Below, piece by piece: positions 3,321 through 33,455 of a stretch of DNA of 39,165 nt. How positions within the stretch are numbered: the stretch's first letter is position 1; each line of letters opens with the position of its first letter. Source of the DNA: a virus. The translations under genes were made by a program, and so were the position numbers. The stretch is from the IMG/VR virus record IMGVR_UViG_3300027823_000003, positions 1 to 39,165 of that record. One strand, 5' to 3'. The notes under the pieces are model-generated. The model did no database searches, was not told the DNA's origin, and saw nothing but the letters and a program-made list of their open reading frames with translations.

Positions 3321-3327
3321 GATTTTG

Positions 3328-3344: not shown

Positions 3345-3350
3345 CAGGTT

Positions 3351-4406
3351 TTATAGAGCAAGCCCTATGGTTACGTTTGCGCGTTGGTGAATTAGTTGTG
3401 CATAGTTCGGGTTTAGTTCAAGTAGTATGGCTCGCCTACCTAATTCTAATGCGACTTCTCCCGTTGTCCCACTGCCGCCGAATGGATCAAGAACTACGTC
3501 ACCGGGTTTCGTTCCTGCCATGATGCAAGGTTTTATTAAATCAGGAGGATATGTAGCGAAGTGTGCTCCCTTGTAAGGCTTGGTTGCCACGCTCCACACG
3601 CTGCGTTTGTTCCGAGTGCCACTTGCTCCCACGTCCTGCATTTCTCGCCCTTCGCGATTAGCTCCTTGTCCACGGAAGGCATTCTGTCCGCCGCGGCCCA
3701 CCGCCTTCATTGGTCCATTAGTTTTACCAGGCACTCGGTTACTTCCAAGCTGCGAATCCACATCTTGAGTTAACCGTTTCACCGTGCTCTCAGCAACCTG
3801 CTCTTTGATCGCCTCATTGTCGTAGTAGTAGTGAGCCGACTTCGACAGCAGGAAGATGTATTCGTGGCTTTTGGTGCATCGGTCGGTGACGCTTTCCGGC
3901 ATCGGGTTAGGCTTGCTCCAGATAATATCTTGCCTCAGATACCATCCATCCGCCCGCAGTGCAAAGGCCACCATCCACGGAATACCCACCAAGTCTTTTT
4001 GCTTTATTCCTAAATTTATTAAACTTCGAGTGCGGTCTCCCCGCCCATTTCTGTCGTCTTGTGAAGATGATGTCTTTTTCCCTATCAGGCTATTCTCCCT
4101 ATTACTTTTCGTGTCAGAAGCCGCTCCGCAGTATGAATCACCGAGATTCAACCAAAGAGTCCCGTCCTTTTTTAATACTCGCCTAACTTCACGGAAGACT
4201 TCTACCAAGGTTTTTACAAATTCATCTGGTGTTACCTCCCGTCCAATCTGTTCGGTATGTCCATAATCCCGCAGCCCCCAGTAGGGTGGAGAAGTCACGC
4301 AGCATTGGACAGACTCATTAGGCATCGCCTTGAGTAATTCACGGCAATCCCCTACGCGAACATCAAGCAAGCAACCAACGAAAGGAGTAATATTTTCAGT
4401 CGTCAT
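3351..4406 (-). CDS. DNA amino-methyltransferase (N4-cytosine or N6-adenine), beta-class, SPPY
   Basis: Motif IV CVTSPPYWGLRDYG is near the N-terminus. The C-terminal HFATYPPDLIKPCI...GDVVLDPFGGSGTTGEVA matches the N6_N4 methylase signature. Confidence 0.85.
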   Translation of the reverse strand: MTTENITPFVGCLLDVRVGDCRELLKAMPNESVQCCVTSPPYWGLRDYGHTEQIGREVTPDEFVKTLVEVFREVRRVLKKDGTLWLNLGDSYCGAASDTKSNRENSLIGKKTSSSQDDRNGRGDRTRSLINLGIKQKDLVGIPWMVAFALRADGWYLRQDIIWSKPNPMPESVTDRCTKSHEYIFLLSKSAHYYYDNEAIKEQVAESTVKRLTQDVDSQLGSNRVPGKTNGPMKAVGRGGQNAFRGQGANREGREMQDVGASGTRNKRSVWSVATKPYKGAHFATYPPDLIKPCIMAGTKPGDVVLDPFGGSGTTGEVALELGRRAILLELNPNYAQLIHQRANVTIGLAL

Positions 4407-12254: not shown

Positions 12255-13478
12255 CTATAAATCCACCACCGGCGCAATCGGACGGAGAAGGGTAGCGTAA
12301 TGATTGGACGTGGTCGTATGGTCCGCGTGTCCGAGATGCTCTTGCGCCGCCAGTAGTCCATCCCGCGTAGCTATTATTGATCCGTTGTGTTTTCTGAGCT
12401 CATAGACCGTTTTACGGCTCCGCCTACCCGTGGGCAGCATTTTCTTTAGCCAATCAGATAGGCGCCTATACACCATGTCATATCGATGACTCTCGTTGCG
12501 CCCCGCGGCCACTACATGCTCATGGGCTGGAACTAATCTCATCCCGTCCGCCAAAAATTCCGGCACAGCCACCCACCTAGATTTGCCCTTGGGAGAAAAA
12601 TCAGACCGCTCAATAATTCCCAAAACCCAGGAATAAAAAACTAGACCATCGATCACTTTCTCCCGCCTCTCCAGCCAGCTACCTCGACACGCCAACACCT
12701 CAATATTCCTCAGCCCGCACCTACTCACAAGCATGTACGCCAGCCAGAGATCCCGATCCGAGTCAAGTAACCCCCTCGCCGACTCCTCCACCGTGTCGAT
12801 TACGGCCCTATCGATAGGCTGATAGCCTATATCCCGTGACTCAGGCAGGAGTTGACATCCATCCAGCGGATTGCCGCCCGTTAATTTTAGTCCCGCATAC
12901 AGTGGCATTGCGGCCTTAGCAAAAATTGAGCGGGCGCATCTCAACGTACTATTGACTGATACAGCTACCCGTTTCCCCGCCCAGGGATCCTGCCCAATCC
13001 GCGCCTCCGCCGCCTTACGGGATTTTGCCACGAATTTTACAAACATGTCTGGGGTGATTTCATCTATTCTCACTGATCGCGGGTTGCCCAGATCGCCCTT
13101 AGCCGCCCTTAAAATTCTCAGCAGGCACGAGATATTTCCTCGCCGCGTTCGGGTCCGGACCGCTGTTCCTGAGTCGTATCGATCTAACACCTCGCCGACA
13201 GTCGCATAATTATTTTTGAATTTGCCGGTGTCCGAGTTTCCCTCTAAAATATCGCGCCAAATTTCCCTTGCTTTTTTAGCCGCCGCCGCGGGCACATCCG
13301 TTTTCGTGGACCGCCAGTAAGCCCGCCGACGAAACTCAAACCGAGCCACAAAAAACGGGCTCCGATCAAGAAATGTTCTAACCTGCACAGACCGTCCGCC
13401 GCAGGTCAAATGAAACTGTGTATCCTCCGTATCCTCGTTGTTCGCCGACTTAACTTTTGCGATGATAATCTTAGACAT
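12255..13478 (-). CDS. int: Tyrosine recombinase / phage integrase
   Basis: 407 aa. It has box I-like SRCGLRNIEVLACRGSW, ELRKHNGS, and the C-terminal HLGHADHTTTSNHY with the catalytic Tyr context. Confidence 0.85.
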   Translation of the reverse strand: MSKIIIAKVKSANNEDTEDTQFHLTCGGRSVQVRTFLDRSPFFVARFEFRRRAYWRSTKTDVPAAAAKKAREIWRDILEGNSDTGKFKNNYATVGEVLDRYDSGTAVRTRTRRGNISCLLRILRAAKGDLGNPRSVRIDEITPDMFVKFVAKSRKAAEARIGQDPWAGKRVAVSVNSTLRCARSIFAKAAMPLYAGLKLTGGNPLDGCQLLPESRDIGYQPIDRAVIDTVEESARGLLDSDRDLWLAYMLVSRCGLRNIEVLACRGSWLERREKVIDGLVFYSWVLGIIERSDFSPKGKSRWVAVPEFLADGMRLVPAHEHVVAAGRNESHRYDMVYRRLSDWLKKMLPTGRRSRKTVYELRKHNGSIIATRDGLLAAQEHLGHADHTTTSNHYATLLRPIAPVVDL

Positions 13479-13607: not shown

Positions 13608-16600
13608 CTAAGGTTCTATGAAACCTGATGATCCCGACCGTATCATCTCCCTGACCTGAGCCTTCTTCGTGGCATCATCAGATTCCGCTATAAAATCGCG
13701 ACCCGGCAAATAGTAAGCCTTATACCACAAGCTCAGCTCCGCCAGCCTTAATTGCTGATCCACTGTGCGATTATCCCGCCGCAGCGAGGTCAGCCGATCG
13801 TACTCCACCACCAGCCGCTGAACATCCTTTGGCATGGCCGCCCGGATCTTTCTGTTTTCCTTGTCCGCCTCGTTTTCCACGTCGAACTGCCTTGACCTGT
13901 ACCCAGAATCCGTAATACGAAGTACTCGGTTTAATCCAGGCACCGCGGAGACCGTAAATTCCGTAAATGACTCCGCTTCAGAATTAAATTTAACGAAATT
14001 CGTGGCTCCCGTTTGATCTAGGGACCACGCAGCCATCGTTGTCCACGCCGAACCATCACGTAGCATTTGCTCCGATCTATTGAGCACAAAACCGCCGCTG
14101 AAATCATCCACCGGATTCTGTCCAGCCAAGAAAGTTTTCCACCCACCAATTAGTTTCAATATCGGATTGATGGACGGTATCTGACCAGACGAAAACCTGA
14201 TGCCATCATACACGTCACCCGCAACACTTTCGCCCCGCGCCGCCGCGAAGGCACCCTTAACAGCATATCTCATAACGCCGTTGATTGTCCGAGCAGTTTC
14301 GTCTTGAGGCACCCGGAAATAAACAACTTTCTGGCCATGCTCCCCGCCCGGAGTAAACCCGGCAGGAATGATAAGATTTTGCTCCCGGTCATACTTGCTC
14401 GTCCCCGCAAACCAGTTCCGCAACTCCTCCCCCAGCGCACCCTCTTCAGCCAGCGTCTGCATCAACATGTACATGCCGCCACCGAATAGCATCCAAGACA
14501 TCCACCAGTACCCCGACGAATTGCCTTTCACCTTGCCGGACGCCAGCTTGATATCGCTCTCCCAGCCATTCTGGAAAACCGTGAAGAACGGTAAAAATGA
14601 ATTTGCCACCCAAGCGAACCGCCCGCGCTTCATAAAGTTTGGCACCCCAATATGGTTTCTAACGTACATGGCAGACTCAGGCTCAGTCCACCCTAAATCT
14701 CTTGTGAGAACCTTATATGCTGTCATCTTAGGCAATGCCTCGAACATTTGCCCCGCAAACTCGATCCGTAGAAAAAACTGACTGATCGGTTTTCCGACCT
14801 TAGAATTAAAAATTGATCGTTTTTCCGCCTCGGGAGCCAAATGGAACTGCTGGAGAATCATATCAAAACCGTCCACATCCGAAACCGAACGAGCAAAGGA
14901 GTCAAAAGGGGACCATATCGCAGCCACGTTTAACATCTCCATGTTAAGCTTCCAGGCCTCTACCTCCTGCGGGCTGGCATCCGTGCCCGGCTTCTTTAGG
15001 CCGGGACCTTCACCAAATTTCCCCAGCCTTTTCCGCACCGCCGAATCAGGCGAGTTAACGATAAACTTATATAAATTAGTAAAATATTCTCTGGTCATCT
15101 TCCCCCTTGATTTTGGAGGCGCGTTCACCATCAATCGCCGAAAATCACGAATAGGCGAAGTGACCAACTGGAAAGACGGGTTAAACCTAATAATTAACGG
15201 ATAGACGTAGCTCCTAAAGACATGCGACATCATACGGATAGACGTGAACATTTGTTCCGGAGAAATCCTTTCAAATGCCCTAGCAATATCCTCATCCACC
15301 ACCCACGATTCAAGTTTGCCGTCTTTCTTCAGCTCCAGCAACGCCTTACCTTTTTCCTTGGGTATCCGCGCCCGCATCCCTTTCCCGTCCCACACCATCT
15401 CCGCCACCTCAATCTCCCCAGGGAAATATTTCTTCAGAAAATCACGAAGCATCATCTTGGCTCGCTGTTCCTGGGTGGCTTTCATTAACGCTATTGATTT
15501 TAAAAGAGTCGCCTCAAGCGGATTAGCTATGTCGGAAAACGTTCCAGTTTGCGCTTTGATGCCAGCGGGCACATAAGTATCCCAGTATTTTAAGGGAACG
15601 AACGCCGCGTAGTAATCACGGTTAGGGAGGATGACATTATCAAATAATTCCTGACTAATCAGCCCCGCCGCCGCAGCGTCCTGCATGATCAAAAAAACTT
15701 GATCGTGCATCCGTTGTGCCGCATTCTCCACCGCAGCCCACCGCTGCGCACCTAACTGCCTTCTCATGCCCAATAGTTGAGTCGTGGCCGTACCCGCAGT
15801 ATGCCCACCAGGATTTGCCAAATTCTTACGCCCGCCCTCATCTACTCCTAGCGCACCCTCTACTTTAATATCATACGATTCATTGGCGACACGGCTGAAA
15901 TATAGATATTCCCCTAAAGTTTTCCTGTCCAAGTCCAGTTCTTGTAGAATATTAATCACATCAGTCTGCACCTTCGTCAAAAAAAGATAGACCTGATTAT
16001 CACCCAGCGGATGGGCATCAAAAAACCAATCCAACCGCTCCTTCATGTTTAATGTTATCCCCGTAGCCTCCACCTGCCTCTGTTTACGTATTATAGGGGC
16101 GTATTCGTTATGTAGCTCCGTTTTTAGACCCGCCATTAAACCTTTCCATGAAAGGGCGCGAGCCCGCACTTCCGCCCACTTTGCCCTAAAAATTTCATCC
16201 CCTTTTAAGAAGGCCCCCCGCATCCGCTCCGATCTGCTCGCCATTAATGCACCTGCAGGTTTTTGTAGCAATTCTTGAAGTGCTAGTAGAGCCTCTTTCA
16301 CTTCCGGCTTGCGGTCCAGAAATGCGAAAAAAGTACTGTAAAAAACGGGTGCCTTATCCTTTAGCGTTGCCGGTGAATTCAATAAAACTGAAATCGCATC
16401 CGCATATAGTTCGCGTCCACTTAATCGATAAGCCACGTATGATGAAGGTGAGCCCTCCGGAATGGGTTTCCAGTACTCCGTCAATGCCACCAGCTCCTCC
16501 CTTATTTCAGCCTCACGCAGAAGCCCCCGCTTTTTGATTTCATCCTCAACCAGCCGCCCATACTCATCCCGCACATTCTCATTCCATATAGCCAGATCCT

Positions 16601-19600
16601 CCGGTTCTTCCGCAGGAGGCCGATTGCCGTGTTTTGCCGTTACTTCCTTGGTAGCAACATATCTCAGCCTAGCTCTATCAGATGTCGATAGAGCCTTACT
16701 CGGGTTAGTGGGTAGATTAGGTAGCGTAGTATTTAAGTGCTTCCACAGCGTACCCAGCCGGCCTAGTAAATTACCTCTAAGCATGGTAATATCCGGTAAA
16801 TAATCCAAAAGATGTCCAATCTCATGGGCCAAAGTCTTGGCCGCAGAAATAGGATCTAAAAAAATTCTAGGATCCAGTTTAATCATGCCGCGCCCGATTG
16901 CGTAAAAAGCACCCCTAGCTGATTGAAATTTCTTCAGCATCGGTACATTACCGGTAAGTAATCTAACCAATTCCACCAGCTCCGGCATGGCTACGATATT
17001 CACGTTTTCCATCCCCCCTAGTTCCACTTGCACGTAAGGCGAACCCTTGTCTTGATACACTAGTGGCTTTGCTGCATTGAAAACTGGAGTAACATCCACC
17101 GCCTCCACCTCCGCCGCCTCCGCATCCTCTAACTCCTGAACCGCCTGCTCCTCACGCGGCCTCCAAATTGATAGGTCAATAGGCACAGGTCCGGTTGCCG
17201 TCTGGATAAAATTTGCGGGGCGGGCGTCAGAAACAAAAGTTCCGTCGCCGAGTCGGTGCCACTTCGCACCCTTCGACTCCGTTACGGGGACAAAACCCGC
17301 CGACCGCATGTACTCATCCACTGCCGCCGCCGTAGGATGAGGTTGCGCCGCGTCCGCAGCCTGAATGTATTTCTGCTTAGTTATTATACGGCCGTCTTTA
17401 GTTACGCCCAAAATCTGGATGTCGTCTGGGAAAACCTCCCGGGAAAGACGTAACCGATCAAAATATTGAAGAGGTGTCAGTTGTTGCATTATTGTTTGAG
17501 AACCGTCTTCCACAAATCGACCGCCATACTGACGGGTTAAAGTCGCTTTAGTAACGAAACTTGTATCATCAGGAGATAGGTACACGCCGTGCTCTGCACC
17601 CGAAAGTTGAGGCATACCCACCGGAGGCTTTGAGAAACCATTAACTTCACCCCAGCGGATTAAAAGTTGTCGCTGTACCTCGATGGGATCTATTTCTGCG
17701 CCGTCTGACGTTTCGACCCTGCGAATTGTGCTAAGGCCTGCTCGTATGTAGGCGTCGGGAGTTTCGCCCACCGCTGCCGCTCTTGTTCCGCGAAGGCTCT
17801 CGGCGATAGTATCGCGCCGCCTGGGGATTTCTGCTTCTGGTTTTGAGGGTTTGATTTGAGGTTGACTTTCACGGGTAGATTCTACACCCGTTTTTGTATT
17901 CTGTCCAGCCCCAACCGCATCTAACTCAAACGGGTTCGGCTCCTCCGGACCGGACTCCACCGCGGCCTCCACTTGGTTGACATACAAAGTCGCACCGCCA
18001 GAAATTACACTCATCCCCATCCGCTCGCCGCCGTCTAACGTAATTTCCATCGTGTCCGGATTGACGTCCACCACCACGGCCACTTCATCTCCGGATATTA
18101 ATCGATCCCCCACCGCCACCTCCGCCGCGGATACAGGCAACCGTCCTTCCGACTGTCTTAACATGGCAGCTTCAAACCGCATCCCCTGCCGTTTCACCAA
18201 CTGATCACTATCTTTAGCGGCCACCACCTCCTGCTTGACCTCCGCAGCCGGCTTGACGCGCCACTGTATTGCGGAATTGACTTCCGCCCAAAATCCGCCT
18301 ACGGTGCCATCCCCAAAGCCCCGCTCCTGCCCTATCTCAGCTAACTGAGCTGGAGCCATTACCCCGCCGAGCAAGGCTCCACGAAACACGCTAGATAATT
18401 GAGGCGCGTCATCCCACTCCGCCGCAGGCTTACGCCCAGGGTTTTTAAGTCCCCCGTTTTCTTGAATAAAATCTAAAACATCATACCCCTCTGGGTTGAC
18501 TGGTAATTTAGGACCCGTCCGCTTCGCCGCCGCGGGCACCTTAATAGTCTCACCCACGCTAGGAGCCTCCGTCATAGCCGCAGAGGCAGTCTCTGAGATA
18601 GAATTATCAGACGTAGCAGCCCGCGTTGGCACTACGCCAGGAGTCTCGCCCACCCTATCCGCTACCCCGCCCTTTTGTCCCCGCTTTTCAAGAGCAAGGG
18701 ATAAATCAGCAAATCCCTTGAAACCAATACCTAAAGCCATACCCGCGCCAAAATTGAACACCGCCCGCTCCGCAATATCTCTGTTGGAGAGTTCCTCTAC
18801 GCCAGTCTCACGCGTTACCAAATCCTGCAAAAACCCCTCCACCAGTTCTTCTGCTCCTTCCGCACCGCCTTGGCGTCCGTATTCCACTAGTGCTTTTTTG
18901 AATCCGGCGGACCCCGCCAGCGTCATCAATGCCTCCGGTCCAGTCCTACCGCCGACCGCTGTCACGCCCGCTGTAATCGCACCTTGTATAATAGCATACG
19001 CCTTAGCTTGATCTTTAGGCATCTTACCGTCCGCCTCGCGGTAAGATTGGCCGGCTTGCATCACCCCACCAGCCACCGCCGCAGCGGGCAGCCCGGCTGG
19101 AGCAAACGCTACGTAAGGGAGGGTTGAGCCCACTGCGCTGCCCGCCATTTGCGCGAAGTCCCCAGCCGCACCGCCGCCGAACTCCTGCCCCGCCGCATCC
19201 AGACCCGCCACGATACGCGCCGCTTCATCGGCGGATTGCTTAGAAAATTCCGAGAGCTTCGTAAATGCGTTTTCTTGCATTCCGATTTCTCGACCTTGTA
19301 ATACATTCTCCGACCCCTCGCCGGAAGGTACCTCCGGCTTGTCCACGCCCAGGACATCCCGCAGATTCCAATACGCCGATTTAACCGCCTCCCCCTTAGC
19401 CTTACTTAATTCAGCCAAAGAATCATAAGCCATGTCCAATGCACTCCAACCACCTTCACCCGTCGCCTTAAGAAATCCGGCCACCGCACCGATTCCAGCG
19501 CGGGCAGGCACCGCCACCGCCGCTCCGCCCTCCTCGGTCTCAGGCTTAGGATTCAACTCCAGCCCTCCGATTGAGATGTTGCCGCCCGCCGCGTACTCGC

Positions 19601-19709
19601 CCTGTAGCCGCGTCATTTCCTCTTCTGAAAGAATATCCGGAAGCCCCGCCGCATCCTCGTCTTGCAGTTTTTGCATTTCCTCGTCGCTCAAAATGTCTGG
19701 TAATTCCAT
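13608..19709 (-). CDS. Giant (2,033 aa) virion/ejection-type multidomain protein with kinase-like and zincin (HEIGH) signatures
   Basis: A single uninterrupted ORF. Its parts are: an N-terminal duplicated acidic 21-mer (LPDILS[DE]EEM..LQ.E.AAG); an Ala/Gly-rich hydrophobic region; GAEHGVY...VTK, SDARPANFI and PIDLS (aa about 700-850); AKTLAHEIGHLLDY (aa 958-970); and C-terminal hydrophobic helices (GYWWMSWMLFGGGMYMLMQTL). It sits at the end of the structural operon. Confidence 0.75.
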   Translation of the reverse strand: MELPDILSDEEMQKLQDEDAAGLPDILSEEEMTRLQGEYAAGGNISIGGLELNPKPETEEGGAAVAVPARAGIGAVAGFLKATGEGGWSALDMAYDSLAELSKAKGEAVKSAYWNLRDVLGVDKPEVPSGEGSENVLQGREIGMQENAFTKLSEFSKQSADEAARIVAGLDAAGQEFGGGAAGDFAQMAGSAVGSTLPYVAFAPAGLPAAAVAGGVMQAGQSYREADGKMPKDQAKAYAIIQGAITAGVTAVGGRTGPEALMTLAGSAGFKKALVEYGRQGGAEGAEELVEGFLQDLVTRETGVEELSNRDIAERAVFNFGAGMALGIGFKGFADLSLALEKRGQKGGVADRVGETPGVVPTRAATSDNSISETASAAMTEAPSVGETIKVPAAAKRTGPKLPVNPEGYDVLDFIQENGGLKNPGRKPAAEWDDAPQLSSVFRGALLGGVMAPAQLAEIGQERGFGDGTVGGFWAEVNSAIQWRVKPAAEVKQEVVAAKDSDQLVKRQGMRFEAAMLRQSEGRLPVSAAEVAVGDRLISGDEVAVVVDVNPDTMEITLDGGERMGMSVISGGATLYVNQVEAAVESGPEEPNPFELDAVGAGQNTKTGVESTRESQPQIKPSKPEAEIPRRRDTIAESLRGTRAAAVGETPDAYIRAGLSTIRRVETSDGAEIDPIEVQRQLLIRWGEVNGFSKPPVGMPQLSGAEHGVYLSPDDTSFVTKATLTRQYGGRFVEDGSQTIMQQLTPLQYFDRLRLSREVFPDDIQILGVTKDGRIITKQKYIQAADAAQPHPTAAAVDEYMRSAGFVPVTESKGAKWHRLGDGTFVSDARPANFIQTATGPVPIDLSIWRPREEQAVQELEDAEAAEVEAVDVTPVFNAAKPLVYQDKGSPYVQVELGGMENVNIVAMPELVELVRLLTGNVPMLKKFQSARGAFYAIGRGMIKLDPRIFLDPISAAKTLAHEIGHLLDYLPDITMLRGNLLGRLGTLWKHLNTTLPNLPTNPSKALSTSDRARLRYVATKEVTAKHGNRPPAEEPEDLAIWNENVRDEYGRLVEDEIKKRGLLREAEIREELVALTEYWKPIPEGSPSSYVAYRLSGRELYADAISVLLNSPATLKDKAPVFYSTFFAFLDRKPEVKEALLALQELLQKPAGALMASRSERMRGAFLKGDEIFRAKWAEVRARALSWKGLMAGLKTELHNEYAPIIRKQRQVEATGITLNMKERLDWFFDAHPLGDNQVYLFLTKVQTDVINILQELDLDRKTLGEYLYFSRVANESYDIKVEGALGVDEGGRKNLANPGGHTAGTATTQLLGMRRQLGAQRWAAVENAAQRMHDQVFLIMQDAAAAGLISQELFDNVILPNRDYYAAFVPLKYWDTYVPAGIKAQTGTFSDIANPLEATLLKSIALMKATQEQRAKMMLRDFLKKYFPGEIEVAEMVWDGKGMRARIPKEKGKALLELKKDGKLESWVVDEDIARAFERISPEQMFTSIRMMSHVFRSYVYPLIIRFNPSFQLVTSPIRDFRRLMVNAPPKSRGKMTREYFTNLYKFIVNSPDSAVRKRLGKFGEGPGLKKPGTDASPQEVEAWKLNMEMLNVAAIWSPFDSFARSVSDVDGFDMILQQFHLAPEAEKRSIFNSKVGKPISQFFLRIEFAGQMFEALPKMTAYKVLTRDLGWTEPESAMYVRNHIGVPNFMKRGRFAWVANSFLPFFTVFQNGWESDIKLASGKVKGNSSGYWWMSWMLFGGGMYMLMQTLAEEGALGEELRNWFAGTSKYDREQNLIIPAGFTPGGEHGQKVVYFRVPQDETARTINGVMRYAVKGAFAAARGESVAGDVYDGIRFSSGQIPSINPILKLIGGWKTFLAGQNPVDDFSGGFVLNRSEQMLRDGSAWTTMAAWSLDQTGATNFVKFNSEAESFTEFTVSAVPGLNRVLRITDSGYRSRQFDVENEADKENRKIRAAMPKDVQRLVVEYDRLTSLRRDNRTVDQQLRLAELSLWYKAYYLPGRDFIAESDDATKKAQVREMIRSGSSGFIEP

Positions 19710-19710: not shown

Positions 19711-20475
19711 CTATTTAATTTTCACCCATTGGCCTTGCTCGTTTTTCTGGTAGCTCACCTCACGCACAGTCCGCGTTTCCGCCGCTCCGGTCGCCATACG
19801 GCTCAAGCCTGGGACACCGGCGCCTATCGGCGGAATGGATACTCCAGTAGATTCCCCCGCCACCGCCGCAGGCATATTAATAGTCAGCCCAGGAGTCACC
19901 GCCGCAGGTGCAGCCCCTTTAGCCATACGATTTAATTCAGCCATCGGGTCAAGAGGAGCGAACTTTGAGCCCTTCGGCATCGTGTACAGCACCTCGCCCG
20001 TAGTGCGATCCACCACCGGTGTTTGAGCAACTTCCACCGCTCCGCGCTCCGCTGGATTCACCAGAGGCTCATACTGTCCCGTCACCTCATTCAACTTGTA
20101 CGGGCTGCCTTTATCATAGATTATGCCACTAGATTTTCCGCCGCGCCCACTACCACGGCCACCACCAGACGGCAGGCGATCCGCCACACGCTGCTTGCGG
20201 GAGGCATCGGCTATCAGTGATGTCATGTAGCCCTTAGCTTTCGCAAAAGGCATCTTAGAAATTCCGTCCAGATCTTCCTGAGAAATCGCACCAGACTTAG
20301 TCATGTACTCGCCCATACCCAGGAAGGCATCCAAATCATCCTTATTGGCCTGATTGCGCTCGTACTCCTTGCTCAGCGAGCTCCCCAGTGCAGACCCCGC
20401 TTGTTGGATACCGTCCGCCAACATCCCCACCCCTTGCATATGCGTCCGATCCGCTGTGTATGGCACCCAGTTCAT
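19711..20475 (-). CDS. Gly-rich putative internal virion/ejection protein
   Basis: 254 aa with low-complexity SGGGRGSGRGGKSSG. It lies immediately upstream of the giant protein (stop, 1 nt, ATG). Confidence 0.55.
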   Translation of the reverse strand: MNWVPYTADRTHMQGVGMLADGIQQAGSALGSSLSKEYERNQANKDDLDAFLGMGEYMTKSGAISQEDLDGISKMPFAKAKGYMTSLIADASRKQRVADRLPSGGGRGSGRGGKSSGIIYDKGSPYKLNEVTGQYEPLVNPAERGAVEVAQTPVVDRTTGEVLYTMPKGSKFAPLDPMAELNRMAKGAAPAAVTPGLTINMPAAVAGESTGVSIPPIGAGVPGLSRMATGAAETRTVREVSYQKNEQGQWVKIK

Positions 20476-20488: not shown

Positions 20489-21334
20489 TTAAAGTTTCCC
20501 GCCCCCGAAATAATCCAACTGCGAAAGATCGACGTGCGTCACCTTGTCCCCCACGTTTGTAATCTGTAGCCCCAGCTTAGGACAATCCACCACCAGCTCG
20601 CCCCCGCGATTTAAACACCTCATACACGCTGGGAAGTAATCCGGATTCTCCGATTTATCATCCCTCTCCCGCCAGAAAGTTTCTTCCCCCTGCACCACCT
20701 GCTCATACCGCTCATGGTGAATAGGTATATTATTTTTATCTGTGTACTCCCAAACATCTTCGTCTGTCCAATTCCTTAAAGGAAAAAACCAATCAGCCCC
20801 GCCCGGCATTTGACGGACATCAGTGTGTAGCGTGAGGTCTCCCCACATAGGATCATGATCGCTCGACTTGTGCCCTACTGCCGCGCCATCCCAAGGGAAA
20901 TGGAACCCGCCTAAAGGCTTCCTCAATAAATCATCGCGACCGCATAAAAACTTTTCGCCCCGCGCAATACGCTCCTCTGAGTCAGGATCAATCCCAGTTG
21001 GTACTACGCCCTGTGAGTTCCCCACCTGATAAAAATTCAAGAGCTCAAACAACCCACCCCGCCGACCTAGCGCAGTCGCGTTAGCAGGATAGTCATATAC
21101 TGTCAATCCCCATTCCTCTATGACCTCGTTAGCGAAATGATATTTCTCAGGGCAAAACGGCTCACGGTGAAAAAGGACCGGCCACATGGGTAACTGCTGC
21201 GTCTCACAAAAAGTCTTCACTAAATGCAAGAGCACCATGGAGTCCTTGCCGAACGAACACATCACCACCGGACGCCGGCATTGCGCCTGCATGATGTTTA
21301 AAATATTCTCAGTTTTCTTAACAAGTTTTTCCAT
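20489..21334 (-). CDS. Phosphoadenosine phosphosulfate (PAPS) reductase family / PP-loop protein
   Basis: PP-loop-like VVMCSFGKDSMVLLH is near the N-terminus, followed by FPLRNWTDEDVWEY and a C-terminal Cys pair CMRC. This layout is typical of the CysH/PAPS-reductase superfamily. Confidence 0.75.
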   Translation of the reverse strand: MEKLVKKTENILNIMQAQCRRPVVMCSFGKDSMVLLHLVKTFCETQQLPMWPVLFHREPFCPEKYHFANEVIEEWGLTVYDYPANATALGRRGGLFELLNFYQVGNSQGVVPTGIDPDSEERIARGEKFLCGRDDLLRKPLGGFHFPWDGAAVGHKSSDHDPMWGDLTLHTDVRQMPGGADWFFPLRNWTDEDVWEYTDKNNIPIHHERYEQVVQGEETFWRERDDKSENPDYFPACMRCLNRGGELVVDCPKLGLQITNVGDKVTHVDLSQLDYFGGGKL

Positions 21335-21342: not shown

Positions 21343-22224
21343 TTAGAACGCCGCCGCCACCGCGCCCACCGCCCCGATTCCTGCGCCGATTAACCCCATC
21401 GTGCCAGCCTTACCCGCACCCTTAGCGTTCGCTTTCATGATTGCGAAGTTATTGGCTTGCTCAAAATTATCGGAATTCAACTGGGAATTATATTGTGCGG
21501 TTTGAGCCTGATTCATCCCGAACATAGTATTTTGTGAACCGAGTGAATAGCCCGCAGATCCGAACGTGCCTTGAGCTGCGCCCGTGGTATTCACTTGAGA
21601 CCCAGGGCGTCCCAACACCGCCAGCCAAGGGTCCTGTTCCATACCAGCCAACCTCAACGCGAAGTCCCGGTCTTGAAACATCTTGCCCCTACTTACTGTG
21701 TCGCGGTTTAAGAACTCGCTTACCACTGCCGGATTACTACGCACCATCCCCCGCTCCGAAAACTCTGCTCGTGTAGTTTGCTCCACGTCGCGAAGCTCCT
21801 CCGGACTCAGTCGACCCCGCAGTTTCACGTCCGTCAAAGCTTGATCGGATAATTCTGCTATGATAGGATTTGCGCCGCGGAACGCATCCCGAGCCCGCCC
21901 GCCAAGTAACTCAATATCTGTAATGTCCGCAGTGCGTTGAGTGGTTTGTAGGCTTTGCTGTAAAGCCTGATCCGCCGCGGCCTGCTCGCGGGCGAAAGGG
22001 TAAATATCATCCTTATAAAGGTCCAATAATCCCCGCTGCTCGTCGGTTCCTTTTAATGTCCGCTCCAAAGTAGCCGTGTCTAAGTCCGCGTATTTTGGCT
22101 TATATTCCTTTTCACTCTCGTAAATCTGAGGGGCCAGATCCACTTGAGCCTGTAGGCTATCGCGTGTTTCTTTGCCGACATCTCGTGGAGCCGGCTGTGA
22201 AGGTGCTGGAGGTGATCCGCCCAT
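21343..22224 (-). CDS. Putative internal virion/ejection protein
   Basis: 293 aa. It has a Q/N-rich region and a C-terminal Gly/Ala hydrophobic tail (GAGKAGTMGLIGAGIGAVGAVAAAF). The call is by position in the structural module. Confidence 0.5.
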   Translation of the reverse strand: MGGSPPAPSQPAPRDVGKETRDSLQAQVDLAPQIYESEKEYKPKYADLDTATLERTLKGTDEQRGLLDLYKDDIYPFAREQAAADQALQQSLQTTQRTADITDIELLGGRARDAFRGANPIIAELSDQALTDVKLRGRLSPEELRDVEQTTRAEFSERGMVRSNPAVVSEFLNRDTVSRGKMFQDRDFALRLAGMEQDPWLAVLGRPGSQVNTTGAAQGTFGSAGYSLGSQNTMFGMNQAQTAQYNSQLNSDNFEQANNFAIMKANAKGAGKAGTMGLIGAGIGAVGAVAAAF

Positions 22225-25522: not shown

Positions 25523-27214
25523 TTAAACTTTAGTTTTTGTGTCTCTCTGTTTCTCAAAGCCTTCGACCGTCACAAATTTTACACCAACGCGGCCCTGACT
25601 TCCAGTGATTTCCACCGCCACCGACTCCGCCAGTTCTCGAATTTCCAAAGCCTCAATGCTTTCCTGTTCGCGCTCTGTCCACATGCCGGTTCTTACCCAC
25701 TCGCCGCCCGCCGCAGGTAGCACGCTGTAATCCTCGCGCTTTTCAAGGTTGGCGTCGTCATTAATATTAGTACTGTCATAAGGCTCGCGAGCATGGGTGA
25801 AATAAGCAGTACGGTCTCGGGTGATAATCAAATCCAAACCCTTCCGTTCCGCCACCCCCGGCTTAATCGCCGCAACACTAATAAACGGGTTCCATGTCTG
25901 GATGCCAATCCGCGTCCTGTTAAACCCCTTAAAATACTTTGAGCCGATTGCGTAAAATCGGGTGCGCAACTGATCAATCACATGCCAGCGTGAGCCGCCC
26001 ACATAATCATATTGTCCGTATTCATGTACTAGCACGCTCCCCAGACCGTTCGCCCGGTTACAAATCATCACCAACTTAGGCTCGCCCATCCACGAAATCT
26101 CCTCAAATCCCAGTATTTGCAGGCCGGCTTTTGCTCCCACACCATTCTCGTTTGCGTAATAATCTACAGACTCCCATGCGTTAGAGACCGTGTTCATCAC
26201 CACTACTACATTATTAGTTTCACTGCCGTCAATCGGTAGCGCAAGGTAATAATATTTACCCAGCACGGCACCCGCCGCGCAAGCCGCCGCATCCCAGTTC
26301 ACGCGCTCCATTAACGGCCTAATCTTTTCCGTGGCGGATACATCGGCTACATCCGTCCTATCTTGAACCACTTGTAGCACTCTATACACGCCGCCTTTGC
26401 TTAAAAATAAAACATCCCCCCCGATACGCACCGCGGATTTTGGGGCAACGCAGCCGCGAACATCACTAATAGAATCTATATATGCATCCGACATATTTCC
26501 CGAAACATTAAAAAACCCAGAAACGCTGTTTGACTTGAAAAGTAAGACCGTCCTATTTACCCACCTCATAACCCTAGTCAATTCATCACCGTCCCCTGCA
26601 TTGACTTTAAAATCAAATAAGGCCGCGTCATACTGATTAAATTCCAATATATCACTCACGGCCACACGATCCCGATTGTGTACCACTAGCAACCGATCCG
26701 CCACGGCTAACATTACCCGTGTATCAGGTATAGCAATAGTAGGCAGAGTGGGAGCGGGTAGAAAATTAAACTGCCCAGTCAAATCACCGTCCCAAGTTAA
26801 TGTCTTAGCTATACCCCGCCCCATTAAAACATGCTGAAAAACTTGCTCAAACACCACCGCGCCCACCAACGACTGCCCTACAGGCAGTCCGATTTTCACC
26901 GGATAAGTATCCTCTCGCATGGCAAAAACCCCATCCACCACCGCGATTAATAAATATTGCACGCCATTAGCAGGATTTTTAAACGTCCCGTGTCCGAGTA
27001 TTTGCCCGAAGGTCTCCAGGTTAAATTGCGCCGCCGCTGCACAACCACGTCGCGTCATAGCAACGCCGTTTTCAATTCTTTTATTTATCAGCATTGTTGC
27101 CCATCCCGCCGCTAGACTCTCGGCGGGTGACTCCATGTCAATGCCTACAAAACCCGCGTCTCCATCTTCTCTCAAAACATCCTCGCCGGGCCCGCTATAA
27201 CCCCAGCGACTCAT
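25523..27214 (-). CDS. Putative tail structural protein
   Basis: 563 aa. The call rests on size and position, between the lysis cassette and the fibre gene. Confidence 0.5.
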   Translation of the reverse strand: MSRWGYSGPGEDVLREDGDAGFVGIDMESPAESLAAGWATMLINKRIENGVAMTRRGCAAAAQFNLETFGQILGHGTFKNPANGVQYLLIAVVDGVFAMREDTYPVKIGLPVGQSLVGAVVFEQVFQHVLMGRGIAKTLTWDGDLTGQFNFLPAPTLPTIAIPDTRVMLAVADRLLVVHNRDRVAVSDILEFNQYDAALFDFKVNAGDGDELTRVMRWVNRTVLLFKSNSVSGFFNVSGNMSDAYIDSISDVRGCVAPKSAVRIGGDVLFLSKGGVYRVLQVVQDRTDVADVSATEKIRPLMERVNWDAAACAAGAVLGKYYYLALPIDGSETNNVVVVMNTVSNAWESVDYYANENGVGAKAGLQILGFEEISWMGEPKLVMICNRANGLGSVLVHEYGQYDYVGGSRWHVIDQLRTRFYAIGSKYFKGFNRTRIGIQTWNPFISVAAIKPGVAERKGLDLIITRDRTAYFTHAREPYDSTNINDDANLEKREDYSVLPAAGGEWVRTGMWTEREQESIEALEIRELAESVAVEITGSQGRVGVKFVTVEGFEKQRDTKTKV

Positions 27215-27774
27215 AATGCCCCCACTACTTGCCGGAATACCGCGTCAGAAACATCATCCTTGCGACCCGGCGCAATCGCCGCGTGCGTAGTAATCCACTC
27301 CCACTTAATGCCAAACTCCGCCATCCGCGCCCGCACCCACTCCACCGCGCTAGCTAGTTCAGGCTTCAGTAGTAACTTTTGCGGGCGTCCTACACCTGAA
27401 ACCGTGTCCCCAGTAAACGCCAGTCCGAGCATAAAATAATTGCAATACGGACGGGAATAAAAACTTGAGACGCCAGCGTGCCAAGCCACCCTATTATACG
27501 GGACGAATTCCACCCGCCGCCCGTCAGTGTTGATTAAACAATGGTATGATACTCGACTCTTGGCTTGTGTGATCCAACTTTGATCGCCAGCCCATGAGCC
27601 ACAACTATGGTGCAGTACGATGCCTTCAGGCTTTAGCACACCGCCAAGATTAGGGGAAGGCAAATAAGTTACATTAAAATTTTCGCTTGCAGCCTTAGCC
27701 CGCATCGTAGCCTTGACAGCGGGAGACCGCTTCAACACTCCGACTTTTTTAATGGATAATCCCCGGGCTTTCAT
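27211..27774 (-). CDS. N-acetylmuramoyl-L-alanine amidase (T7-lysozyme/PGRP type endolysin)
   Basis: EGIVLHHSCGS...VSYHCLINTDGRRVEFVP..RVAWHAGVS...MLGLAFTGD matches the Amidase_2 pattern. Confidence 0.8.
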   Translation of the reverse strand: MKARGLSIKKVGVLKRSPAVKATMRAKAASENFNVTYLPSPNLGGVLKPEGIVLHHSCGSWAGDQSWITQAKSRVSYHCLINTDGRRVEFVPYNRVAWHAGVSSFYSRPYCNYFMLGLAFTGDTVSGVGRPQKLLLKPELASAVEWVRARMAEFGIKWEWITTHAAIAPGRKDDVSDAVFRQVVGAL

Positions 27775-28716: not shown

Positions 28717-29415
28717 CTACACTCTCGCACCATACCGCGCTTGCCGCCCAATTTGTAATCCGACCTTATCCGCCTCTTTAACTAGCAGATCTTCGGCGCG
28801 AGTTTCTTCCACGGTGGCCTTATCCGGTTGTCCGTCCTCTCTCAGCGCATCGCTCCAGACCGCCTGCTTAACGTAGCTCGCTAAAAAATCAGGGAACAAC
28901 ACCCGAACCCATGTCCCTGGAGTCATCACATCCGTATTACTATTTGCCGCTAAGGCCTTAAAACAATCCCCCGTTGACGCCTTATAAACCATATCCCCCA
29001 CCGTATACGAAAGGTTGGGCAGCCACGGTACGCTCGAAAAAATCGGGGCCTCTGTCCGGTAGTGAACCCAGCACTTGACTACTGGCCTAAATAACTGGAT
29101 ACCTTGCGGCCTCAGCTCCCAGTCCATCTCCCGCGGATTACGGACTTTATCAGGACTTGACGCATAGACTCCCAGCACCTGCCCTATGACTGGATGCCCT
29201 AGCTGATTAAAGCTAATAGTGTCCGCCACATCAGGCACGCGCTCCTCGATCCTGCATAGTGCAGGCCAATCTTGATGCTCCCACGCCTCCTTGACCCGCG
29301 AATTAATATATTCCGTCAACGTCTCCGCTTGGTCCGCTAATAAATTCTTAGACGGATCCACGCCCAGCCGCCGTGCCACGCCAAACAAAACAGACTTAAA
29401 TGTACACGTCTTCAT
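28717..29415 (-). CDS. Putative head-tail adaptor / tail tubular protein
   Basis: 232 aa. The call is by position only, downstream of the capsid genes. Confidence 0.45.
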   Translation of the reverse strand: MKTCTFKSVLFGVARRLGVDPSKNLLADQAETLTEYINSRVKEAWEHQDWPALCRIEERVPDVADTISFNQLGHPVIGQVLGVYASSPDKVRNPREMDWELRPQGIQLFRPVVKCWVHYRTEAPIFSSVPWLPNLSYTVGDMVYKASTGDCFKALAANSNTDVMTPGTWVRVLFPDFLASYVKQAVWSDALREDGQPDKATVEETRAEDLLVKEADKVGLQIGRQARYGARV

Positions 29416-29793
29416 CTATCTATACCCCACCATTATTTTGCCCGTCCCTGCCGACTTTACTTTGACTTCTGGATTACGCTTCTGCACGCTCCGCTTAAAA
29501 TCTTTATCGCCCCAACATTCTGGACCCCATCGCCGAATTGCCCATAAGTAATCCCCTAACGGCACCCTCATCACCAGCGCACCCAACCCCTCCACCGCGT
29601 GCCGTGCGACGCGGGACTCCTCCTGCGCCACCCGCTGTCGAGAAATTCCGTCTAGTACGGTCTTGACCTGAGATCCACGACGCAGCTCTTGCTCCCAGTC
29701 TCGGGAGAATCCTGGTAGCTCTTTGATTGCTCCAGCCTCAGCCTCAAAAATTTCGTTGTTTTCCATATAAAGAAAAGCCGGAGAGGAAGACAC
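29416..29793 (-). CDS. Putative head-tail connector-associated protein
   Basis: 125-aa ORF from GTG 29793 (SD GGAGAGG 6 nt upstream, both inside the terminator hairpin). An alternative ATG lies at 29766, just after the U-tract. Confidence 0.5.
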   Translation of the reverse strand: MSSSPAFLYMENNEIFEAEAGAIKELPGFSRDWEQELRRGSQVKTVLDGISRQRVAQEESRVARHAVEGLGALVMRVPLGDYLWAIRRWGPECWGDKDFKRSVQKRNPEVKVKSAGTGKIMVGYR

Positions 29794-29809
29794 TAAAAAC
29801 CTCTCCGGC
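29765..29809 (-). terminator. Rho-independent terminator after the capsid/decoration genes
   Basis: The minus strand reads GCCGGAGAGG-uuuuuagugucuu-CCUCUCCGGC followed by UUUUCUUUAU: a 10-bp G/C-rich stem (29777-29786 / 29800-29809) plus a U-tract. Confidence 0.65.
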
Positions 29810-29829
29810 CACCTTAACCCAAAACCAAA

Positions 29830-30261
29830 TTAGACGCCCGGATTAACCGAACCGATTTGTAGGATTATCCATAACTCTCCATCCGTGACCGTGGACAGCA
29901 ATTTATCTGCCGTACCCGTTAAGGTCAGATCGATTGTGTTTGCGCCATTGTAAACAAATGCATTATTGCTAACACCTGACACCGCGCTGCCTGCAATCAC
30001 TTGTATACCACCAAGATAACGGTTGGTAGATGTATCATCGCCGACGGAGGCTGTAATGCTAGTCAGTGTTCCATCGGATGAGACGAACGGTTTCTTAACA
30101 AAAATCGCCGCGCCCCGCACCGCGCTCCCACTAATTACATCCGCTATGGGCAAGACAAGTGTATTGCTCGATCCCGTCACAAAATCCTCTTTAGTAATTT
30201 GCACCGCGTAATTAAATCCCAACCGCTTCGCTTCAATATCCGATAAAGGCATTTTCTTCAT
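29830..30261 (-). CDS. Putative capsid decoration / minor head protein
   Basis: 143 aa, beta-rich and T/S/G/V-rich, with SD GGAGAA. It lies between the major capsid gene plus tRNA and the terminator. Confidence 0.45.
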   Translation of the reverse strand: MKKMPLSDIEAKRLGFNYAVQITKEDFVTGSSNTLVLPIADVISGSAVRGAAIFVKKPFVSSDGTLTSITASVGDDTSTNRYLGGIQVIAGSAVSGVSNNAFVYNGANTIDLTLTGTADKLLSTVTDGELWIILQIGSVNPGV

Positions 30262-30288
30262 ATATTGTATTCTCCAGTTATTTTAGTA

Positions 30289-33452: not shown

Positions 33453-33455
33453 ACA

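Follow-up and report, generated by a model that had tools for sequence, protein, structure and literature searches.

The minus-strand open reading frame at 13608..19709 of the window (the whole 39,165-nt stretch of viral DNA analysed here, IMG/VR record IMGVR_UViG_3300027823_000003) encodes, from an ATG start, a giant protein of 2,033 aa that is a member of the already known phage-type polyvalent proteins. By homology to, and analogy with, studied phage proteins, it would be made late, most likely packaged in the capsid and then shot through the tail into the host alongside the DNA, a reading to which we give a probability of roughly 0.78. Its C-terminal ~1,130 aa (zincin, helical core and LPD38-equivalent region) form one conserved module, and its N-terminal ~860 aa form a variable half in which disordered linkers join a module rich in Ala and Gly, a module with a small beta-barrel and a minimal kinase. 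The former can be pictured as a conserved 'chassis', found in nearly every family member, that probably gets the protein into the head and lets it pass along the tail channel, or lengthen it, across the envelope, and the latter as an exchangeable 'payload' on its linkers.

Gene and genome context

The ORF list and translation agree with the sequence-only reading, which described a single 6.1-kb ORF making up about 16% of the genome. A 127-bp terminal direct repeat is found in the window, and the genome is therefore complete at 39,038 bp, of which the giant gene occupies 15.6%. This gene stands last in the virion (late) operon, on the same strand as the genes for an SU10-type portal, an SU10-type major capsid protein (MCP) and an amidase and the tail-size genes, and a virion-cluster context is also seen for relatives in L001, L002 and L052 and in Escherichia phage PTXU04. 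Directly downstream, where the sequence-only reading had placed it, lies the integrase (12255-13478, minus strand; PHROG_1, E=2.9e-12), across a 129-nt gap that holds a promoter-like site (13570-13543, minus strand). Read from this integrase context, the phage is temperate and the giant gene closes its late operon; the whole would describe a ~39-kb temperate podovirus-like phage with an SU10-type capsid and portal.

Lysogenic-conversion cargo, too, is typically found where a late operon ends beside an integrase, which counts against a packaged protein. The giant might instead act inside the producing or lysogenic cell, as an unpackaged cytoplasmic late or lysogenic-conversion protein such as a superinfection-exclusion or toxin-like 'moron'; zeta toxin, ART and kinase domains of its family are also known from toxin systems, and some family members sit on large MAG (metagenome-assembled genome) chromosomes. 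We consider this improbable, however: the giant gene abuts the gene upstream and is translationally packed with it, no promoter or terminator was found between it and the virion genes, its position recurs in PTXU04, a lytic phage with no integrase close by, a homologue is abundant in phi24B virions, and the exclusion of cysteine over 2,000 residues is unexpected for a cytoplasmic enzyme.

The genes upstream bear in part on packaging. Two Gly/Ala-rich ejection-type proteins had been proposed there, of which only the nearer is plausible, a Cys-free protein of 254 aa (19711..20475, minus strand) that has no family match and is a candidate for co-ejection; the proteins encoded at its position in L001 (251 aa) and L052 (349 aa) likewise have 0 Cys. 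The second gene upstream (20489-21334) encodes a Cys-rich PAPS-reductase/PP-loop-like enzyme and not a Gly/Ala-rich protein. A further candidate for co-ejection is a 293-aa protein with 0 Cys (21343..22224, minus strand), again with Cys-free positional counterparts in L001 (348 aa) and L052 (328 aa).

Purifying selection acts along the whole length of the giant. Against its 83%-identical orthologue P0002, dN/dS is 0.14 overall and 0.06-0.17 in every domain, as compared to 0.4-1.0 in the linkers.

The conserved C-terminal module

The giant itself has no significant match in Pfam, PHROGs, NCBIfam, PDB sequences or GenBank phages. Its C-terminal module begins with a zincin-like metallopeptidase domain (aa ~890-1125; 16335..17042, minus strand), to which no Pfam model matches. 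The HEIGH motif from which a zincin had been read lies at aa 962-966, within HEIGHLLD (aa 962-969; 16803-16826, minus strand), and conservation upholds that assignment: HExxH is kept in 219 of 220 family members, with Asp at +3 in 202 of the 219. H103, E104 and H107 (A1 query numbering) are invariant, and the invariant E1072 and E1100 downstream of HExxH are candidate third ligands. An Asp three residues after HExxH is described as the phage-type MPTase signature in PMC5512222, and the giant's zincin shows the common phage-clade pattern of HExxH, downstream Glu and Asp at +3. The best Foldseek match in the PDB is anthrax lethal factor, which is not significant (E=0.18); the same template family is reported for the N4 MPTase in PMC5512222. 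The zincin probably processes the giant itself, freeing the front domains.

The helical core that follows (aa 1126-1766, ~650 aa; 14409..16334, minus strand) is modelled by AlphaFold with a pLDDT mostly of 85-95, and is 86-100% identical to P0002 with a dN/dS of 0.08. Behind it lies the LPD38-equivalent region (aa ~1767-1990; 13740..14408, minus strand; dN/dS 0.065), placed by comparison with the LPD38 of the phi24B giant protein (PF18857, aa 2490-2695), which takes over at the end of the hhalign alignment, at giant aa ~1767-1781. The giant itself has no match to the PF18857 model, and in the relative P0104 the corresponding place scores 24.2 bits, below the cut-off of 27.

The roughly 1,000 aa of helical C-terminal sequence noticed earlier are seen in a confident AlphaFold model (pLDDT 81.9, pTM 0.73), which shows mainly helices across the C-terminal ~1,100 aa. 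The hydrophobic helices said to end the protein are not: no helices of transmembrane-grade hydrophobicity occur near the C-terminus, where Kyte-Doolittle means over 19 residues, averaged across the family, reach 1.04 at best. The predicted fold is globular and multi-domain, not an extended coil, and this bears on whether the giant is an ordinary tape-measure or tail-fibre protein, as might be suggested by how large it is and by its place behind the tail genes. Profile searches, which according to the sequence-only reading could have exposed such a protein without enzymatic domains, returned no tape-measure or fibre family; together with the SU10 podovirus type of the virion module, the globular fold and the conserved catalytic motifs, HExxH among them, this effectively refutes the idea.

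Four further residues of the module are invariant, R1273, K1404, D1522 and K1661 (R414, K545, D663 and K802 in A1 query numbering), and could make up an active site. As the module (~1,100 aa) is near mini-vRNAP in size, the C-terminal ~1,000 aa could be imagined as a nucleic-acid polymerase that is packaged in the virion like N4 vRNAP and has diverged strongly, and Foldseek returns weak rows for mitochondrial RNAP, Taq and Klenow. Those rows have E>=0.9 and TM<0.1, however, hhalign to N4 gp50 gives a probability of 0.06%, and this phage, temperate and with ordinary early genes, has no evident need for a packaged polymerase, so that this origin of the module is very unlikely. Across the PDB, Foldseek gave no match significant by E-value for either of the two models.

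A family with exchangeable front halves

A survey of homologues, suggested along with the polyvalent reading, used aa 860-2033 as query and 50%-identity cluster representatives as targets. The query is matched by 1,954 representatives (1,312 at E<=1e-30), nearly always at the C-terminus of proteins of 1,000-4,100 aa. These proteins are from uncultured phages, and the contigs that carry them cluster at 39-46 kb. More than 15 different Pfam domains are found upstream of the one C-terminal module: RadC, which is the commonest cargo, MuF_C, ART-PolyVal, Kinase-PolyVal, LPD3, ddrB-ParB and N6_N4 methylase, and further SNF2/ResIII, Helicase_C_4/AAA_34, SprT with lysozyme, zeta toxin, DnaJ and others. 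The modules of the giant's own N-terminal half occur separately in P0003, P0004, P0006, P0029, P0044 and P0060 and have thus been shuffled, as a polyvalent architecture implies. In BFVD, Foldseek finds 64 matches at E<=1e-3 across ~1,000 columns, to fragments of phage giants annotated with LPD, LT_GEWL or RelA/SpoT domains.

The first of the giant's front modules is Ala/Gly-rich (aa 44-361; 18627..19580, minus strand), in keeping with the ~300 aa of such sequence noted before; A+G content is 29-38% across aa 1-400. It is predicted to be helical at low confidence (pLDDT <55), has a dN/dS of 0.17, and is mobile, being common to P0003 (37% identity), P0006 and P0004. Module 2 (aa 400-590; 17940..18512, minus strand), common to P0003, P0004 and P0060, consists of helices and a small SH3/KOW-like beta-barrel (aa ~520-581) predicted at a pLDDT of ~80-85, for which Foldseek matches the eIF5A N-domain with a probability of 0.97-0.99 but E >= 0.15.

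The third, at aa ~640-855 (17145..17792, minus strand; dN/dS 0.14 against P0002), is a minimal protein-kinase domain of Kinase-PolyVal type. Searched against Pfam whole and in segments, the giant has no match to Kinase-PolyVal even at E<=10 and lies below the PF18762 gathering threshold; the Pfam matches come by way of relatives, namely the orthologue P0002 (E=3.2e-6, 27.7 bits, cut-off 27), P0044 (E=2.9e-10, 40.8 bits) and P0006. As the giant itself lacks a significant database match, the kinase call is therefore transitive, and phmmer links the giant to P0044 and P0029 (E ~1e-22). PMC5512222 gives as features of Kinase-PolyVal the retention of ATP-binding and phosphotransfer residues, a Glu before strand 2, a Gln in the last N-lobe strand, an insert between catalytic His and Asp, and the absence of a C-lobe. 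Motif alignment finds this list of Iyer et al. 2017 in the giant, with key residues E706, K721, Q779, H791, D828, N833 and D845, a ~36-aa insert between H791 and D828, and an end at ~aa 855, directly followed by an acidic linker; the relatives' matches and these distinguishing residues bear out the kinase-like central part read from the sequence. Foldseek matches the region to the NleH1/NleH2 kinase domains (probability 0.92-0.97, TM ~0.5), without significance (E ~0.2). An NleH-like kinase of this kind would act on host proteins, phosphorylating them just as infection begins.

Indications of packaging and ejection

Two features of the giant support packaging and ejection, the first being its extreme N-terminus. 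Two tandem acidic-hydrophobic 20-mers (aa 3-22 and 23-42; 19584..19703, minus strand), LPDILSDEEMQKLQDEDAAG / LPDILSEEEMTRLQGEYAAG, confirm the acidic duplication of the sequence-only reading, with a unit of 20 rather than 21 residues. The copies are identical at 15/20 aa but only 38/60 nt, and the duplication is therefore old and kept at the protein level; no further copy of the motif was found elsewhere in the genome. Of 199 family members, 47% carry comparable short tandem motifs at the N-terminus, as compared to 5% of internal windows (Mann-Whitney p=1e-28), and PTXU04 gp25 also has N-terminal repeats, IDLS/LDLS/FDLS. Such peptides most likely serve to dock the protein on, or target it to, an oligomer encoded by the phage, be it the capsid interior, scaffold or portal.

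The second feature is the avoidance of cysteine across the family. None of the giant's 2,033 residues is a cysteine (background 1.2%, P ~2e-11), and 177 of 225 family members have none, for an overall frequency of 0.019%. T7 gp15 and gp16, N4 gp50, gp51 and gp52, and PTXU04 gp25 also have 0 Cys. Avoidance of this kind would fit unfolded travel through a narrow channel and an oxidising periplasm.

Within such a role, the weight given to the two halves may differ. The C-terminal module could be primarily a structural ejectosome part, functionally equivalent to T7 gp16 or P22 gp16/gp20, that builds a trans-envelope conduit; the giant would then be an internal virion protein first, with its enzymatic front half a secondary decoration. 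The chassis is indeed the most conserved part of the giant, occurs in essentially all members and also stands alone in proteins of ~1,150-1,190 aa (P0005, P0016, P0064, P0066 and P0074), the small Cys-free proteins flanking the gene resemble gp14/gp15 or gp51/gp52 partners, some of the BFVD relatives are giants with LT_GEWL, recalling the transglycosylase of T7 gp16, and knock-down of PTXU04 gp25 strongly reduces plating (PMC11879866). Set against these are an hhalign probability of 0.26% to T7 gp16, the lack of a PDB structural match by Foldseek and the lack of membrane-spanning-grade hydrophobic segments, and we place this version a little short of an even chance. It is compatible with the polyvalent packaged protein proposed above, from which it differs mainly in emphasis.

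Comparison with known systems

N4 gp50 and T7 gp16 are, like the giant, very large and Cys-free, and travel in the head of a podovirus, which they leave through the tail; a 'beads-on-a-string' arrangement is the proposed means of passing a ~35 A channel (PMC13434306), and PMC5512222 ascribes a zincin to N4 gp50 as well. The specific relation to T7 gp16 and N4 vRNAP once suggested does not hold at the level of sequence profiles, where hhalign gives no similarity to T7 gp16 (0.26%) or N4 gp50 (0.06%); the giant, unlike them, has no transglycosylase domain and no polymerase domain or significant polymerase match in Foldseek. The likeness is a functional analogy of position, size and 0 Cys, and a channel-forming role of the chassis is therefore one that we purely infer. 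The NleH/OspG type III effector kinases, the best structural match of the predicted kinase model, resemble the giant in a minimal kinase fold without substrate-binding C-lobe and in its probable delivery into a target cell, but share 13-17% identity with it and differ in delivery machine and target organism.

Detectable homology leads to two studied phages. PTXU04 gp25 (2,197 aa), which is needed for infection, aligns with giant aa 1321-1881 (hhalign probability 95.5%, E=1.6e-8; Foldseek E=1.7e-14) and likewise stands at the end of a structural block or late operon, although PTXU04 is a lytic phage of 61.6 kb and identity is ~17%. The giant protein of Stx phage phi24B (vb_24B_48 in HM208303, 'gp47' in bioRxiv 10.64898/2026.04.10.717836) aligns with giant aa 1193-1781 over 523 columns (probability 97.9%, E=3.9e-13), with helical-core homology running into LPD38. 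It too is virtually Cys-free and the last late-operon gene of a temperate short-tailed phage, and mass spectrometry finds it in abundance in virions, where it has been proposed to be an ejection protein (bioRxiv 10.64898/2026.04.10.717836). Identity is ~18%, its payload is LPD5, LPD1 and MuF_C instead, the chassis zincin falls outside the alignment, and host phylum and capsid type (T=9 in phi24B) are not alike. Homology to a giant detected in virions, and a lack of cysteine as in proven ejection proteins, support the class of ejected giant virion proteins to which the sequence-only reading had pointed, ejection itself being probable by analogy.

The closest correspondence is with the phage-type polyvalent proteins of Iyer et al. 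2017 (PMC5512222), which are giant multidomain proteins encoded with virion genes and which share with the window's giant a zincin MPTase hub with Asp at +3, an LPD38-equivalent, domain exchange and a Kinase-PolyVal domain without kinase C-lobe. The giant, unlike them, escapes all Pfam models, including MPTase-PolyVal and LPD38, and the union of zincin, helical core and LPD38 region in one ~1,130-aa unit was not found described in the available portion of that paper, in which RadC is specific to conjugative elements, whereas here it is the commonest cargo of a phage family. Nonetheless, the giant joins at least two functionally disparate domains (a Kinase-PolyVal-type kinase, a zincin, an LPD38-equivalent and at least three unnamed modules), lies in one cluster with portal and other virion genes and has domains that are recombined among its relatives, as do the polyvalent proteins of phages.

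The giant gene and its setting

The genome bears an exact terminal direct repeat of 127 bp (1-127 and 39039-39165), and is therefore complete at 39,038 bp and either closes circularly or is terminally redundant. Every gene lies on the minus strand. A probable terminase, so called by position alone and with no family match (35890-37614), is followed by an SU10-type portal (33456-35570), an SU10-type major capsid protein (30397-31404), an Amidase_2 protein (27211-27774), two tail-size proteins of about 565 aa and several small proteins, after which come the giant gene, directly behind it an integrase (12255-13478), and then the early genes, including DnaB and two N6/N4 methylases. The giant gene is, as the sequence-only reading described, a single ORF with an ATG start encoding 2,033 aa (13608-19709, minus strand). 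It occupies 15.6% of the genome, and its start codon follows the stop of the upstream gene by one base. The 129-nt gap that separates the giant gene from the integrase contains a promoter-like site (13570-13543, minus strand; TTGACC-16-GATAAT, 10/12), which suggests that transcription of the integrase is separate from that of the late operon. The scaffold gene lies at 31443-32561. A tRNA-Met (CAT) gene (30288-30361, minus strand) sits inside the structural operon directly downstream of the capsid gene. The two methyltransferase genes of the early region (N6_N4 type, 248 and 351 aa; 2574-4406, minus strand) are adjacent; in other members of the giant's family a methylase is instead built into the giant protein.

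When the giant is compared with P0002, an orthologue of 83% identity, every domain has a dN/dS of 0.06-0.17, and values of 0.4-1.0 are confined to linkers at aa 362-399 and 591-639. The giant gene is constrained over its whole reading frame.

Architecture of the giant protein

The N-terminus had been described as a duplicated acidic 21-mer; the duplication is there, in tandem at aa 3-42, but its unit is a 20-mer. The two copies share 15 of 20 amino acids versus 38 of 60 nucleotides, and the duplication is an old one, maintained at the protein level. The Ala/Gly-rich region expected after the repeats spans aa 44-361 (Ala+Gly content 29-38%) and is predicted to be helical, at a pLDDT below 55. 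Helices and a small beta-barrel make up aa 400-590, and the barrel (aa ~520-581, pLDDT about 80-85) resembles the eIF5A N-domain with a Foldseek probability of 0.97-0.99, but at E values of at least 0.15. A profile of the N-terminal part, run against a database of 5.8 billion proteins, retrieved nothing, the query included, probably because Ala/Gly-rich words crowded its candidate list; the model of this part was accordingly built from 8 sequences, and its quality is low except at aa 510-580 and 640-850. The rest of the protein consists of a minimal protein kinase (aa 640-855), a zincin (aa 890-1125; HEIGHLLD at aa 962-969) and a large, mostly helical multi-domain body (aa 1126-2033), and the AlphaFold model of aa 860-2033 has a mean pLDDT of 81.9 and a pTM of 0.73. 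The hydrophobic helices that were thought to end this body did not hold up: averaged over the family, the highest 19-residue Kyte-Doolittle mean is 1.04, which is not transmembrane-grade, and the helices are at most amphipathic. Transmembrane helices in the C-terminal module were rejected on the same scale, no segment of the C-terminal half being hydrophobic enough.

Kinase and zincin domains

Neither the whole giant nor ten 400-aa segments of it match anything in Pfam, PHROGs, NCBIfam or the PDB sequences (phmmer), and tblastn and megablast find no match in 50,697 GenBank phage records. Searched against PDB sequences, a profile of the C-terminal module returns nothing but low-complexity noise (TolA and myosin, for example), and Foldseek finds nothing in the PDB for that module at E<=0.001. 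The kinase becomes recognizable through relatives. The kinase-like part noticed in the sequence is borne out by P0002, which matches Kinase-PolyVal (PF18762) at 27.7 bits for a cut-off of 27, while the relatives P0044 (40.8 bits) and P0006 match it clearly, and P0044 and P0029 align with aa 609-855 of the giant at E about 1e-22. The giant kinase has E706 (the Glu before strand 2), the ATP lysine K721, Q779 in the last N-lobe strand, H791, an insert of ~36 residues, catalytic D828/N833 and metal-binding D845, and is without a C-lobe; these are the features ascribed to Kinase-PolyVal by Iyer et al. 2017 (PMC5512222). Its best structural neighbours are the type III effector kinases NleH1 and NleH2 (Foldseek probability 0.92-0.97, target TM about 0.5, E about 0.2).

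As for the HEIGH zincin, 219 of the 220 family members whose sequence spans the motif have HExxH. An Asp follows three residues past it in 202 of the 219, which is the signature given for a widespread phage-type MPTase clade by the same authors (PMC5512222), and the invariant E1072 and E1100 are candidate third ligands. The zincin is distinct from Pfam MuF_C, which lies ~500 aa upstream of HExxH in the relatives P0009, P0161 and P0190. MuF_C has been called a metallopeptidase in a preprint on phage phi24B (bioRxiv 10.64898/2026.04.10.717836), whose giant gene lies at 29149-37572 of HM208303 (locus L049), and a PBECR RNase-type domain by Iyer et al. (PMC5512222).

A conserved rear module with exchangeable front ends

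When aa 860-2033 were searched against a set of 1.84 billion cluster representatives, 1,954 matched at E<=1e-3, of which 1,312 reached E<=1e-30. The matched proteins are 1,000-4,100 aa long, with the match nearly always at their C-terminus; a few proteins consist of this module only (~1,150-1,190 aa). In a Pfam listing of the domains upstream of the module, drawn from the profile search, RadC is the most frequent and MuF_C is also present, together with ART-PolyVal, Kinase-PolyVal, LPD3, ddrB-ParB, N6_N4 methylase with Cons_hypoth95, SNF2/ResIII/Eco57I, Helicase_C_4/AAA_34, SprT with phage lysozyme, zeta toxin, DnaJ, ParBc and others. The RadC/JAB domain, listed by Iyer et al. (PMC5512222) as specific to conjugative elements, often stands alongside MuF_C (e.g. 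P0009, P0015, P0153, P0161, P0190). The giant's three N-terminal modules are likewise found separately in other proteins. P0003 (L002:10001-19378), a protein of 3,125 aa encoded on a 134-kb contig next to capsid and adaptor genes of SU10 type, has the Ala/Gly-rich module, the beta-barrel module and the kinase in common with the giant, but has its own HETAGH zincin and is without the conserved C-terminal module, and thus carries the same payload on a different rear end. Such is the modular logic of polyvalent proteins, with the rear fixed and the front exchangeable.

Contigs of the family concentrate at 39-46 kb. Species-representative genomes hold 46 loci, all 46 in MAGs and from many phyla, and integrated copies, among them a Chthoniobacteraceae prophage in CP170506.1, occur in complete Chthoniobacteraceae and Vicinamibacterales chromosomes and in megabase-scale Gemmatimonadales contigs. 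The nearest species-representative loci are from Verrucomicrobiota (34-38% identity), and Iyer et al. (PMC5512222) report a concentration of Kinase-PolyVal in prophages of Verrucomicrobia-Chlamydia and Bacteroidetes; we weakly infer a verrucomicrobial host.

Links to studied phages

Against BFVD, Foldseek aligns the C-terminal module with 64 entries at E<=1e-3 over ~1,000 columns and at 11-19% identity. These are C-terminal fragments of phage giants annotated as LPD-containing, LPD38, LT_GEWL, RelA/SpoT or methylase, and they include proteins of Escherichia phage PTXU04, Ralstonia phage Alix and Cellulophaga phage phi46:3. Two of these links are borne out by profile comparison. By hhalign, aa 1193-1781 align with residues 1908-2506 of the phi24B giant (vb_24B_48, gp47; Prob 97.9%, E=3.9e-13), reaching into its LPD38 domain (aa 2490-2695), and aa 1321-1881 align with PTXU04 gp25 (Prob 95.5%, E=1.6e-8). 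According to a 2026 preprint, the phi24B giant is abundant in virions by mass spectrometry and has been proposed to be an ejection protein, and it is not visible in the reconstruction (bioRxiv 10.64898/2026.04.10.717836). PTXU04 gp25 scored as 'Fit' in a CRISPRi-ART screen, plating falling strongly on knock-down (PMC11879866). In both phages, as here, the structural block ends with the giant gene. A relation to the giant ejected proteins of N4 and T7, which the sequence-only reading had also raised, finds no such backing, hhalign giving a probability of 0.06% to N4 gp50 and 0.26% to T7 gp16.

Two sequence signatures

The giant contains no cysteine in 2,033 residues, versus a mean of 1.2% for the other 38 ORFs of the window (P about 2e-11). 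Of 225 family members, 177 are Cys-free, and the pooled frequency is 0.019%. The same absence marks the proven ejection proteins gp15 and gp16 of T7 and gp50 (3,500 aa), gp51 and gp52 of N4, as well as PTXU04 gp25. The phi24B giant (2,807 aa) has only 2 Cys, both in its first 14 annotated residues (MPGHCAGFFYGVCM..., L049:29149-29190), and the Met at position 14 may be where the protein really begins.

Two Gly/Ala-rich ejection-type proteins had been proposed just upstream of the giant gene. The first, of 254 aa (19711-20475), fits that description, but the second (20489-21334) is a Cys-rich PP-loop/PAPS-reductase-like enzyme. The window and the relatives' loci L001 and L052 share one order, namely a Cys-free protein of ~300 aa, the PAPS-like enzyme with 7-8 Cys, a Cys-free protein of 250-350 aa and the giant, which makes the two small Cys-free proteins (19711-20475 and 21343-22224) candidate ejection partners. 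Avoidance of Cys is near-total in the giant, in its family and in these two small proteins. The enzyme gene (20489-21334, minus strand; L001:2318-3163; L052:8155-8952), CysD/CysH-like below family cut-offs, is conserved with a candidate ejection protein on either side, a short way upstream of the giant gene.

The second signature lies at the N-terminus. Among 199 full-length members, 47% have a best 8-residue self-repeat score of at least 28 within residues 2-81, versus 5% of internal windows and 4.5% of shuffles (Mann-Whitney p=1e-28). About half of these homologues open with 2-5 short acidic-hydrophobic motifs in tandem (P0004-P0225; L053:22690-22850; 19584-19703, minus strand, in the window). 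The motifs combine acidic with aromatic or hydrophobic residues and differ by lineage: GAFDDLIP, FDPSQPFE, DPYAGIG, AEAFLDEA and DAFGGIPV are examples, LPDILSDEEM is that of the giant, and PTXU04 gp25 opens with IDLS/LDLS/FDLS repeats. A motif common to other proteins of the same genome was sought and rejected, the motif being unique to the giant in each genome checked. The C-terminal tip of SSB reads DFDDDIPF, and motifs of the FDDLIP type were considered as mimics of it; Tol/Ton-box-like peptides that dock in the periplasm were considered as well. The strong variation of the motifs from lineage to lineage argues instead for a phage-encoded partner.

Discussion

Apart from small corrections, the earlier observation is borne out. 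Kinase-PolyVal matches in P0002, P0044 and P0006, the almost universal HExxH and the exchange of modules among relatives support the earlier interpretation of the giant as a polyvalent protein. It is a phage-type polyvalent protein of a known kind and not categorically new. What is added here is that its rear module of ~1,130 aa is one conserved unit, very widely distributed and without a curated model; that profile alignments anchor this module to two experimentally studied coliphage proteins; and that the family bears two simple sequence signatures, the lack of Cys and the N-terminal tandem peptides. A single unannotated 6-kb gene stands for about 2,000 protein clusters in which the rear is fixed and the enzymatic front ends are interchangeable. 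Since neither Pfam nor PHROGs nor NCBIfam has a model for the rear module, such genes, which often take up about 15% of a phage genome, are labelled 'hypothetical'. Homology to virion-associated phi24B gp47 and infection-required PTXU04 gp25 provides tractable E. coli models of rear-module function, and the two signatures are cheap, widely testable predictors of ejected proteins that could help find injected effectors, including anti-defence enzymes.

The giant would be made late, loaded into the head, possibly through binding of its N-terminal repeats to a symmetric phage partner, and released through the tail at infection. Compact domains on fast-evolving disordered linkers, like beads on a string, and the lack of Cys would be in keeping with a protein that crosses a narrow channel and the periplasm in steps and partly unfolded, an argument made for the N4 vRNAP (PMC13434306). 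Processing of the polypeptide is the most plausible task of the invariant zincin, in line with the proposal of Iyer et al. (PMC5512222) for MPTase hubs, and the kinase may then act on host proteins, by analogy with the NleH effectors and with T7 gp0.7, which is named in the same paper. Because some proteins consist of the rear module only and PTXU04 gp25 is needed for infection, this module is more than a carrier, and it may itself belong to the ejection apparatus.

A broader and more tentative reading, to which we would give roughly three chances in ten, is that the C-terminal module, the N-terminal tandem peptides and strict Cys exclusion make up a general vehicle for protein delivery, without a name until now, that belongs to a very large clade of podovirus-like phages of ~40 kb spanning many bacterial phyla. 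The rear module would load into the head and escort or extend the ejection channel, the invariant zincin would cut the payload free, and any enzyme could be swapped in between the repeats and the rear module. If true, the family would be a natural, programmable injector of arbitrary Cys-free proteins into bacteria. The lineage-specific repeats would then serve as a code targeting the capsid, portal or scaffold, comparable to the capsid-targeting sequences of T4 or the cargo-loading peptides of encapsulins.
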